From the NCBI RefSeq assembly GCF_044324785.1, contig NZ_CP172127.1: a DNA stretch of 64,000 bases. The stretch is one strand, 5' to 3'. The position numbers and the translations under genes were made by a program. Source of the stretch: Escherichia coli. Lineage in GTDB: Bacteria > Pseudomonadota > Gammaproteobacteria > Enterobacterales > Enterobacteriaceae. The notes below the pieces were generated by a model. That model was not told the origin of the DNA, did no database searches, and worked only from the letters and a program-made list of their open reading frames with translations. The first letter of the stretch is position 1. Every line of letters begins with the position of its first letter. This document shows, in pieces, positions 38,373 through 41,373 of the stretch.

Positions 38373-38449
38373 TTTCATTAGTATCTTGAAAATCGGGTAA
38401 TTACGACGCTAAATTAATGCAAGAATAAAAAACAGAGGAACCGTACGGA

Positions 38450-38914
38450 ATGCGTTTCTGCCTTATTTTGATCACAGCACTGTTTCTGGCCGGGTGTAGC
38501 CACCATAAAGCACCGCCGCCAAATGCCAGACTTTCTGATTCGATTACCGTTATTGCCGGTTTGAACGACCAGCTACAAAGCTGGCATGGCACGCCGTATC
38601 GTTATGGTGGCATGACGCGGCGCGGTGTGGACTGTTCGGGATTTGTTGTTGTGACGATGCGCGATCGTTTCGATTTGCAGCTGCCCCGTGAAACCAAACA
38701 ACAAGCCTCTATCGGCACGCAAATTGATAAAGACGAGTTGCTGCCTGGTGACCTGGTCTTTTTCAAAACGGGCTCCGGACAAAATGGTTTGCATGTAGGT
38801 ATTTATGATACCAACAACCAATTTATCCACGCCTCTACCAGCAAGGGAGTGATGCGTTCCTCACTCGATAATGTCTATTGGCAGAAAAATTTCTGGCAGG
38901 CGAGACGAATCTAG
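38450..38914 (+). CDS. nlpC: NlpC/P60-family peptidoglycan endopeptidase lipoprotein NlpC
   Basis: ORF 38450..38914, 154 aa; lipobox LAGC; catalytic Cys context DCSGFV. Confidence 0.95.
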   Translation: MRFCLILITALFLAGCSHHKAPPPNARLSDSITVIAGLNDQLQSWHGTPYRYGGMTRRGVDCSGFVVVTMRDRFDLQLPRETKQQASIGTQIDKDELLPGDLVFFKTGSGQNGLHVGIYDTNNQFIHASTSKGVMRSSLDNVYWQKNFWQARRI

Positions 38915-38923
38915 TATGTCGAA

Positions 38924-38958
38924 AAATGGACGGCGATGATACATCTCCGTCCATTTAC
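38924..38958 (+). terminator. hairpin downstream of nlpC (possible terminator)
   Basis: atggacgg...ccgtccat inverted repeat with a long loop, followed by ttactcc; weak T-tract. Confidence 0.35.
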
Positions 38959-39160
38959 TCCTGAATACAGTAGTATTTTACAGACAAAAATTCCGTAAAT
39001 GGATTATTCGTTTATAATCAGGATAATCTAATAAAAGGACCCCTGAAAAAGTGGTTAACATGGAACAAATGAAAGTTACTCCTTCTGTAATTGTTATGTC
39101 TTATGGCCTCATCCCTTTTAGCCGGATACTGAAAAACATCCTTCGAGAGGGACGGTTACC

Positions 39161-39874
39161 ATGAAGATTTTTTTGGAGAATCTTTATCATTCTGATTGCT
39201 ATTTCCTGCCGATAAGAGATAACCAGCAAGACCTTGTCGGCGTTGAGTTAATTACCCATTTCTCCAGTGAAGATGGTACGGTTCGTATCCCGACGAGTCG
39301 GGTTATAGCGCAACTTACCGAGGAGCAACATTGGCAATTATTTTCTGAGCAGTTGGAATTGCTAAAATCATGCCAACACTTTTTTATTCAACATAAACTC
39401 TTTGCCTGGCTTAATTTAACCCCACAAGTGGCTACTTTATTATTAGACAGGGATAATTACGCGGGCGAACTATTAAAATATCCGTTTATTGAACTGTTGA
39501 TTAATGAGAATTACCCGCATCTCGATGAAGGAAAAGATAATCGCGATCTTTTTTCCTTATCGCAAATGTATCCCCTTGTGTTAGGTAATTTGGGCGCAGG
39601 CAATAGCACAATGAAAGCGGTTTTTGATGGCCTTTTCACCCGCGTCATGCTGGATAAAAGTTTTATTCAGCAACAAATCACGCATCGCTCCTTCGAACCG
39701 TTTATTCGTGCGATCCAGGCGCAAATTTCCCCATGTTGCAATTGCATCATCGCGGGGGGCATTGATACGCCAGAAATAATGGCACAGATTATCCCCTTTG
39801 ATTTCCATGCTCTCCAGGGATGCCTGTGGCCTGCCGTTCCTGTAAATCAGATAACGACGTTGGTTCAGCGATAA
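39161..39874 (+). CDS. ydiV: anti-FlhD4C2 factor YdiV (degenerate EAL domain)
   Basis: ORF 39161..39874, 237 aa, MKIFLENLYHSDCYFLPIRDNQQDLVGVELITHFSSEDG... Confidence 0.94.
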   Translation: MKIFLENLYHSDCYFLPIRDNQQDLVGVELITHFSSEDGTVRIPTSRVIAQLTEEQHWQLFSEQLELLKSCQHFFIQHKLFAWLNLTPQVATLLLDRDNYAGELLKYPFIELLINENYPHLDEGKDNRDLFSLSQMYPLVLGNLGAGNSTMKAVFDGLFTRVMLDKSFIQQQITHRSFEPFIRAIQAQISPCCNCIIAGGIDTPEIMAQIIPFDFHALQGCLWPAVPVNQITTLVQR

Positions 39875-39897
39875 CCCTCCTGTTTGCTGGTGTTTAA

Positions 39898-41373
<1,476 letters not shown>

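Follow-up and report, generated by a model that had tools for sequence, protein, structure and literature searches.

A conserved leader open reading frame ending on the ydiV (rflP) start codon of Enterobacteriaceae, a candidate for translational coupling

The 64,000-nucleotide (nt) stretch of the Escherichia coli contig NZ_CP172127.1 (assembly GCF_044324785.1) analysed here, referred to as the window, contains the locus btuE-btuD-nlpC-ydiV(rflP)-selO. The subject of this report is a short open reading frame (ORF) that precedes ydiV and ends on its start codon, hereafter the upstream ORF (uORF). YdiV/RflP directs the flagellar master regulator FlhD4C2 to degradation by ClpXP and underlies the nutrient control of motility, bistability, immune evasion and mechanosensing in Salmonella and pathogenic E. 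coli. Its synthesis is controlled post-transcriptionally, with poor translation in K-12 and repression by CsrA. A literature search found no cis element named for this control. The search likewise returned nothing linking ydiV/rflP with a uORF, a leader peptide, a small ORF or translational coupling, although some key subscription papers were outside its coverage and an earlier description is possible.

In the window, ATG 39060-39062 opens a 34-codon frame, MEQMKVTPSVIVMSYGLIPFSRILKNILREGRLP, whose stop codon overlaps the ydiV ATG (Table 1). A preliminary description, made from the letters of the window alone, had proposed this ORF with its ATGA overlap on the ydiV start and had noted a weak GTGG motif 5 bases 5' of the ATG; the coordinates and the motif are both borne out by the sequence. 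The same frame also offers an in-frame GTG at 39051 (37 codons) and a second in-frame ATG at 39069 (31 codons). As that description had further stated, the ORF is unannotated: it is missing from the RefSeq E. coli records examined, including MG1655, in which rflP occupies 1791307-1792020 on the minus strand. An exact-sequence look-up returned the 34- and 37-amino-acid E. coli versions as unnamed or 'hypothetical' gene calls only, and the 31-amino-acid version and the peptides of other genera were absent from it.

Taken as a single sequence the frame is mildly unusual, which is suggestive and not decisive. When the 200 nt upstream were simulated with a first-order Markov model, an ORF initiated at ATG and terminated in the ATGA arose with P = 0.013 for a length of 34 codons or more and with P = 0.016 for 31 or more, values at which many (dozens) such frames are expected per genome. 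The TGA is automatic whenever the second codon of ydiV begins with A. Within the window, five of the 63 long ORFs are preceded by an ORF of 25 or more codons that ends on their start, three of the five being real upstream genes. Elsewhere in the window, an ORF of 46-47 codons (56495-56638, minus strand) ends in an ATGA overlap with the start of aroD (56498) and is probably due to chance, since it lies mostly within the 3' end of ydiB in another frame. Figures of this order would leave room for a chance open frame in an AT-rich spacer, a caveat entered in the preliminary description; only the cross-species comparison shows the frame to be something else.

For this comparison, 80 Enterobacteriaceae ydiV loci, one genome per species, were collected by alignment of YdiV homologues (some counts are for 79 loci), and a Salmonella enterica locus was added to the set. 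YdiV is fast-evolving, the E. coli protein being 36-54% identical to those of other genera (Citrobacter, Salmonella, Enterobacter and others). The loci are anchored by the ydiV start, which aligns at M1 in all of them. An ATG is present exactly 92 nt upstream of the ydiV ATG (position -92) in 70 of the 80 loci, and its E. coli equivalent is ATG 39069. The frame that it opens has 31 codons (30 in some) and a stop overlapping the ydiV start, and is found across Citrobacter, Salmonella, Enterobacter, Lelliottia, Kosakonia, Kluyvera, Trabulsiella, Yokenella, Phytobacter, Pseudocitrobacter, Leclercia, Huaxiibacter, Intestinirhabdus and other genera; Salmonella is the genus in which the preliminary description had proposed that conservation be checked. 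The stop and start codons overlap in 79/80 loci (ATGA in 67, TGATG in 6, TAATG in 6; one locus differs). Codon 2 of ydiV begins with A in 78/80 loci despite the variable residue that it encodes (I, K, N or M).

Over codons 2-30 the uORF frame is stop-free in 74/80 loci, compared with 8/80 and 7/80 for the other two sense frames (3/79 and 7/79 in a second count), 5/80, 30/80 and 17/80 for the antisense frames and 3-12/79 for control windows farther upstream. Stops occupy 20 distinct codons in each of the other sense frames and eight in the uORF frame, where all 11 stops fall in exceptional lineages. The nlpC-ydiV spacer has 41 different lengths, from 197 to 1255 nt, whereas the 92-nt uORF distance is without indels, so that every indel lies 5' of the uORF. 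At less than 70% identity the 92-nt leaders form 25 clusters, and the ATG and open frame are present in 17 of these; the chance that a cluster is stop-free after shuffling is 0.07-0.26. In a tree-aware simulation (neighbour-joining tree, 1000 runs) in which the base composition of each column was kept, a procedure generous to the null, 42 leaves on average and 67 at most were stop-free at realistic divergence, compared with the 74 observed (P<0.001); with divergence set unrealistically low, P was 0.014. About 70 species of more than 15 genera share the frame with its length, start and stop overlap, and this comparison indicates that the frame is maintained by selection. The chance origin allowed for in the preliminary description is refuted by these cross-species data, the loci not being mis-anchored, and next to no likelihood is left to it.

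Most of the exceptional loci retain a uORF. In this group, E. albertii (which has a 1-nt deletion), two Kluyvera species and Kosakonia sacchari have the homologous ATG shifted to -91, and their uORFs end at -16, -25 or +14. One metagenome-assembled genome (L062) is without the -92 ATG and instead has upstream ORFs that begin at -101 and -91 and terminate at +1 and +17.

Of 5417 E. coli genomes, 5401 carry the 120-nt segment 39045-39164 at 99% identity or higher. The adjacent spacer passes this threshold in 527 of 5417 and the opening 120 nt of ydiV in 2313 of 5416, and the uORF segment is more conserved within the species than the ydiV coding sequence itself. Very few E. coli lack an intact locus. 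Strain ECJXMCRH7 (L005, NZ_CP067342.1 2237242-2240304) is one of them: its annotation gives btuE, nlpC and selO as pseudogenes or fragments, and the leader match extends over only 63 nt at 85%. A draft E. coli genome (GCA_903972355.1, L087 390-526) has a 1-nt insertion, GAAAAA-T-CATCC, which joins the uORF to the ydiV frame. From this fused frame gene callers report a 274-amino-acid 'long YdiV' (P0002), which was considered as an alternative isoform and rejected, as it is the product of the insertion. Either a rare natural variant or an error of assembly may lie behind the insertion; if real, it would be a natural uncoupling mutant.

The comparison also bears on the start codon. The preliminary description had placed the start of its leader uORF at 39060; the frame stands as one beyond chance across species, and its conserved start is ATG 39069 (-92), which on this comparison is the ancestral one. 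In Escherichia, an ancestral AAGGAA has become ATGGAA by an A-to-T change in E. coli and three close clades: ATG 39060 is present in the window, in MG1655 and in L006, L007 and L010, and AAG is found in its place in Escherichia L008 and E. albertii L009. As the change lies inside the AAGGA motif, it both creates the upstream in-frame ATG 39060 and weakens the Shine-Dalgarno (SD) sequence of ATG 39069. The same downstream outcome would be expected from either ATG. The consensus at this motif is AaAaGGaAaaaATG, with the GG conserved at 86-98%, and a GGA-type motif lies no more than 14 nt upstream of the -92 ATG in 65/70 sequences, at a spacing of 4-5 nt. The consensus of the initiation context is AaAaGGaAaaaATGAAA, the second codon being AAA in 51/70. 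A short GC hairpin (e.g. CCGGTTCACCGG) is found directly 5' of the ribosome-binding site (RBS) of the uORF in Salmonella (L086 1380-1410) and Citrobacter (L014, L018, L026 and L082). In Salmonella an AAGGAA is on the 5' side of the hairpin, which could bring it nearer to the uORF start codon.

Table 1 Features of the ydiV leader and adjacent genes in the window. Negative positions in the remarks are relative to the ydiV ATG.
Feature	Position	Strand	Remarks
nlpC, gene 5' of ydiV	38450..38914	+	same orientation in 77/79 related loci
TATAAT hexamer, putative -10	39013..39018	+	same place in Escherichia, Salmonella and Citrobacter
Upstream AAGGA motif	39035..39039	+	-126..-122; GGA within -135..-115 in 91% of representatives
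Three-codon in-frame 5' extension of the uORF, ATG GAA CAA	39060..39068	+	E. coli and closest clades only
SD-like motif for ATG 39069	39061..39066	+	TGGAAC in E. coli; family consensus AAGGAA
uORF conserved core, 31 codons, MKVTPSVIVMSYGLIPFSRILKNILREGRLP plus TGA	39069..39164	+	start at -92 from the ydiV ATG; cross-species conservation
UCCCUUUU, tentative partner of the ydiV SD (39145-39152)	39113..39120	+	predicted 8-bp SD-masking helix in the E. coli minimum-energy fold (z -0.39)
GGAT(G/A) motif inside the uORF, candidate CsrA-type GGA site	39124..39128	+	-37..-33; 77-89% conserved
ydiV SD region, GAGAGGGA	39145..39152	+	inside the 3' end of the uORF; family consensus GcGGGGC at -16..-10
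ydiV/rflP coding sequence	39161..39874	+	anti-FlhD4C2 factor, 237 amino acids, EAL domain PF00563
uORF stop codon, TGA	39162..39164	+	overlaps the ydiV ATG (39161-39163); sequence cATGAag

The encoded peptide is not under the constraint seen in YdiV. From 26 independent close species pairs, the ratio of non-synonymous to synonymous divergence (pN/pS) was 0.90 for the uORF versus 0.18 for ydiV. The entropy at the three codon positions is flat in the uORF (1.26, 1.24 and 1.10), the corresponding values in ydiV being 0.88, 0.66 and 1.62. Among the uORF peptides compared there was no third-position excess, no conserved arrest motif or regulatory codons and no run of particular amino acids. Where it is the translating of a uORF that counts, unconstrained peptides of this sort are typical, which suggests that the peptide itself is without function. 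It is accordingly highly improbable that the uORF encodes a trans-acting small protein with a function of its own, such as a membrane or regulatory peptide. Such a protein would fit the moderate hydrophobicity of the E. coli peptide and the Ser at position 8, which many genera share while differing in the third base of its codon; however, the pN/pS and the flat entropy give no indication of purifying selection on amino acids, the peptides of different genera can barely be aligned, and no family in Pfam or NCBIfam was found for query peptides of four genera.

In Salmonella, transcription of rflP starts at -230 as determined by rapid amplification of cDNA 5' ends (5'-RACE) (bioRxiv 10.1101/2020.05.29.124750), which places the uORF, at -92, inside the rflP mRNA; transcription running on from nlpC is reported there as well. 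The putative -10 hexamer of Table 1 would predict a start near -136, again with the uORF inside the transcript. A scan of the plus strand for sigma-70 promoter and terminator consensus sequences gave nothing useful, the hexamer going uncalled because its -35 is weak. The hexamer is part of a conserved block, cTGGATATT-N5-TATAAT-CAGGATAAgCT (38990-39030, plus strand), which lies about 45-50 nt 5' of the uORF ATG and is common to Escherichia, Salmonella and Citrobacter, with the related ACTGGCTATTAT...CCAGGATAAGATTA in Enterobacter-like genera. This block looks like a -10 element with an operator.

The leader also contains GGA motifs at conserved positions. A GGA starts at -37 in 62% of the representatives and lies within -40..-32 in 65%, compared with 3-6% in control windows; at three leader sites GGA is present in 91%, 85% and 65% of the representatives, against the same 3-6%. 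The GGA positions in E. coli are 39021, 39037, 39062, 39124 and 39150. At the GGAT motif inside the uORF the Arg codon is always NGG, which argues for constraint at the level of the nucleotides. Multiple GGA motifs with one over an SD sequence, as in leaders controlled by CsrA, are found here, and the SD in question is that of the uORF. Repression of rflP by CsrA, in part through mRNA binding, is reported in one preprint (bioRxiv 10.64898/2026.07.10.737737), and Salmonella rflP/STM1344 is given as a CsrA target at second hand. The GGA over the uORF SD, along with the other conserved ones, would fit with CsrA acting through the uORF.

Taken together, these findings argue that the last 92 nt before ydiV form a cis-acting translated leader ORF coupled to the translation of ydiV, a reading to which we assign a probability of about 0.6. 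Ribosomes would load at the A-rich, AAGGA-type RBS of the uORF (at ATG 39069 and, in E. coli, also at ATG 39060), traverse the leader, including the G-rich SD region of ydiV, and terminate at the stop that overlaps the ydiV AUG. Synthesis of YdiV would then depend largely on termination-reinitiation or on unmasking of the poor ydiV RBS, and control of initiation at the uORF would set YdiV output, with CsrA at the conserved GGA motifs, or nutritional status, as candidate inputs; the uORF peptide itself would be functionless. The leader has some of the features of a coupled uORF, namely a start codon and RBS of its own (the RBS being weaker in E. coli and without GG in Salmonella), a stop overlap and a selected frame. 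The G residues of the ydiV SD are 89-98% conserved, and the SD lies 8-10 nt from the AUG. Translation of the uORF, positive coupling and the action of CsrA or nutrients through the uORF are all steps that we infer from the sequence.

The uORF could instead be translated and act in another way: its ribosomes might occlude the ydiV RBS, which would make it a negative element, or they might shield the leader from Rho-dependent termination or RNase and in this way control completion or stability of the mRNA. The same conservation data apply to these possibilities, as they speak for selected translation of the frame and for nothing beyond it; comparable small ORFs (smORFs) of E. coli either raised or lowered downstream translation after removal of their start (bioRxiv 10.1101/511675), and the leader is long (230 nt in Salmonella). 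Nevertheless, such modes of action seem unlikely to us. A stop/start overlap in 79/80 loci, together with a G-rich SD just before the stop, is the classic geometry of positive coupling, whereas occlusion or Rho shielding needs no stop on the AUG, and the stops that have moved are still within -25..+17.

Several observations weigh against a coupled, translated leader. In the uORF pS is 0.084 and pN 0.075, a strong and equal constraint when set against the pS of 0.376 in ydiV, and equal constraint on synonymous and non-synonymous sites implies that the conservation comes partly from RNA or DNA binding sites and not from translation. On the reading favoured here, the leader is a translated frame combined with RNA or DNA recognition sites. 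With RNAalifold, only a 3-bp CCC/GGG helix between anti-SD and SD recurs among 32 diverse leaders, and no strongly conserved SD-sequestering helix was found. For the uORF, E. coli has a weak SD, ATGGAA, and in Salmonella the usual SD position lacks GG. The uORF has no entry by gene name in one Ribo-RET/Ribo-Api small-ORF supplement (for BL21; the search by MG1655 coordinates was uninformative), and there is none near ydiV in two Salmonella small-protein supplements; absence from such lists is weak evidence, because the ydiV mRNA is poorly expressed in K-12 in rich medium. Pseudescherichia (L078 and L081) and Siccibacter (L083) have unrelated uORFs farther upstream instead, and L070 and Entomohabitans (L085) are without any uORF, so that on this sampling the element is very widespread and not indispensable. 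The direction of the effect, activation or repression, is not readable from the sequence. Finally, GGAACAA-N15-TCTGTA (39062-39089, plus strand), inside the uORF, resembles the sigma-E (sigma-24) promoter consensus. Transcripts from this putative promoter would begin near -65 and be without the uORF start. The spacer between nlpC and rflP is one for which a sigma-24 promoter has been predicted (PMC5930307). The sigma-E-like motif with its spacing is not conserved in other genera.

Other predictions of RNA structure gave similarly modest results. The E. coli single-sequence fold has a z-score of -0.39, no better than shuffles, and an Rfam scan of 38400-39900 at a permissive E-value returned sub-threshold chance hits only. 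The predicted unpaired probability at the ydiV SD region is 0.19-0.37 versus a mean of 0.46, and predicted accessibility is 0.39 for the ydiV RBS region versus 0.53 for the uORF RBS, which is mildly suggestive only. A terminator-like match on the minus strand (39137-39154) is the mirror image of the small plus-strand hairpin around the ydiV SD and is probably no independent feature.

Some of these data would be accommodated by a leader that is regulatory and non-coding, with sites for a protein, a small RNA or CsrA, or with operator or promoter DNA, the open frame being an untranslated by-product. Such a leader would account for a pN about equal to pS at 0.08, far below the synonymous value of ydiV, for the near invariance of the segment across E. 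coli, for GGA motifs conserved at four places, for the constant NGG form of the Arg codon at GGAT and for the promoter-like elements TATAAT (39013-39018) and the sigma-E-like motif (39062-39089). It would leave unexplained the avoidance of stops in one frame, which was controlled for column composition and phylogeny, the ATG at exactly -92 with its AAA second codon, the stop overlap on the ydiV ATG and the absence of frame-breaking indels over 92 nt amid an indel-rich spacer; moreover, identity between genera is below 70%, yet the frame persists in 17/25 clusters. We therefore regard a wholly non-coding leader as improbable.

The preliminary description had also held that ydiV is poorly translated and that a leader ORF might gate its expression. 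The former agrees with the report that rflP is inactive in E. coli K-12 through attenuated translation (PMC7157525), and gating by the leader would fit with it; strain differences in the uORF cannot be the cause. The possibility that YdiV output differs between K-12 and pathogenic strains through the uORF sequence was rejected, as the segment is essentially invariant (5401/5417 E. coli genomes). More tentatively, and as a possibility that we would place below even odds, the uORF may be the point, hitherto missing, at which the flagellar on/off decision of enteric bacteria is controlled post-transcriptionally: nutrients and CsrA would act on the uORF RBS, stop/start coupling would set the level of YdiV/RflP, and under envelope stress, transcripts that begin within the uORF, such as those from a sigma-E promoter, would escape this control. 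If true, this would explain both the nutrient-dependent translational control of ydiV in Salmonella and the attenuated translation in K-12.

The proposed coupling of the uORF to ydiV has parallels among known systems. In E. coli, according to work attributed to Vecerek, Moll and Blasi in 2007, a leader ORF of ~28 codons, uof, is reportedly required for the translation of fur, and RyhB is said to act on the RBS of this uORF and not on that of the main gene. The logic parallels the control by CsrA or nutrients proposed here for the ydiV uORF. There is no sequence relationship between the two, and coupling and regulator are demonstrated for fur whereas for ydiV they are deduced. Short translated leader ORFs also control a downstream gene in cis in the case of trpL, hisL, pheL, tnaC, secM, mgtL and toiL. 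Leader-peptide attenuators and arrest peptides rely on regulatory codons or an arrest motif, together with alternative RNA structures or Rho loading. Unlike these, the ydiV uORF has no conserved residue run, peptide motif, or alternative or terminator structure: RNAalifold gave no conserved hairpins and the consensus scan no terminator-like site on the plus strand, and there is no room for a terminator between the uORF and ydiV because the ORFs overlap. The CsrA-repressed leaders of glgC, cstA and pgaA have several GGA sites, one of them over the SD. The ydiV leader is like them in its three to five GGA motifs at conserved positions and unlike them in that the GGA overlapping an SD belongs to the uORF and not to the regulated gene; if real, an effect of CsrA on ydiV would be indirect, via coupling.

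A further likeness is to the smORFs that Weaver et al. found by Onc112 and retapamulin profiling in E. coli, each overlapping the 5' end of a larger gene, such as baxL-baxA, evgL-evgA, argL-argF, pssL-pssA, ORF33-accD and yoaL (bioRxiv 10.1101/511675). Like these, the ydiV uORF is a short leader ORF that overlaps the start of the main gene in a different frame. Replacing the start of those smORFs by a stop raised or lowered downstream translation. They were detected experimentally in K-12, whereas the ydiV uORF is known here from sequence comparison; the family-wide conservation of position was found here for the ydiV uORF. Regulatory uORFs overlapping the main start are thus of a known kind (baxL, evgL, argL, pssL), and the ydiV/rflP case is apparently undescribed within the literature searched.

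A uORF ending on the ydiV start would provide a concrete, mutable element in a much-studied regulator, one that current genome annotations omit. Among ydiV constructs (reporter fusions, deletions, 'promoter' fragments), those that cut through -92..+1 are expected to behave differently from those that include it.

Farther upstream, a hairpin lies just 3' of the nlpC stop (38926-38953, plus strand) with the arms ATGGACGG...CCGTCCAT. In EC556 a compensatory double change gives ATTGACGG...CCGTCAAT, which suggests that the stem is real. The weak T-tract that follows this hairpin fits the read-through from nlpC into ydiV that has been reported.

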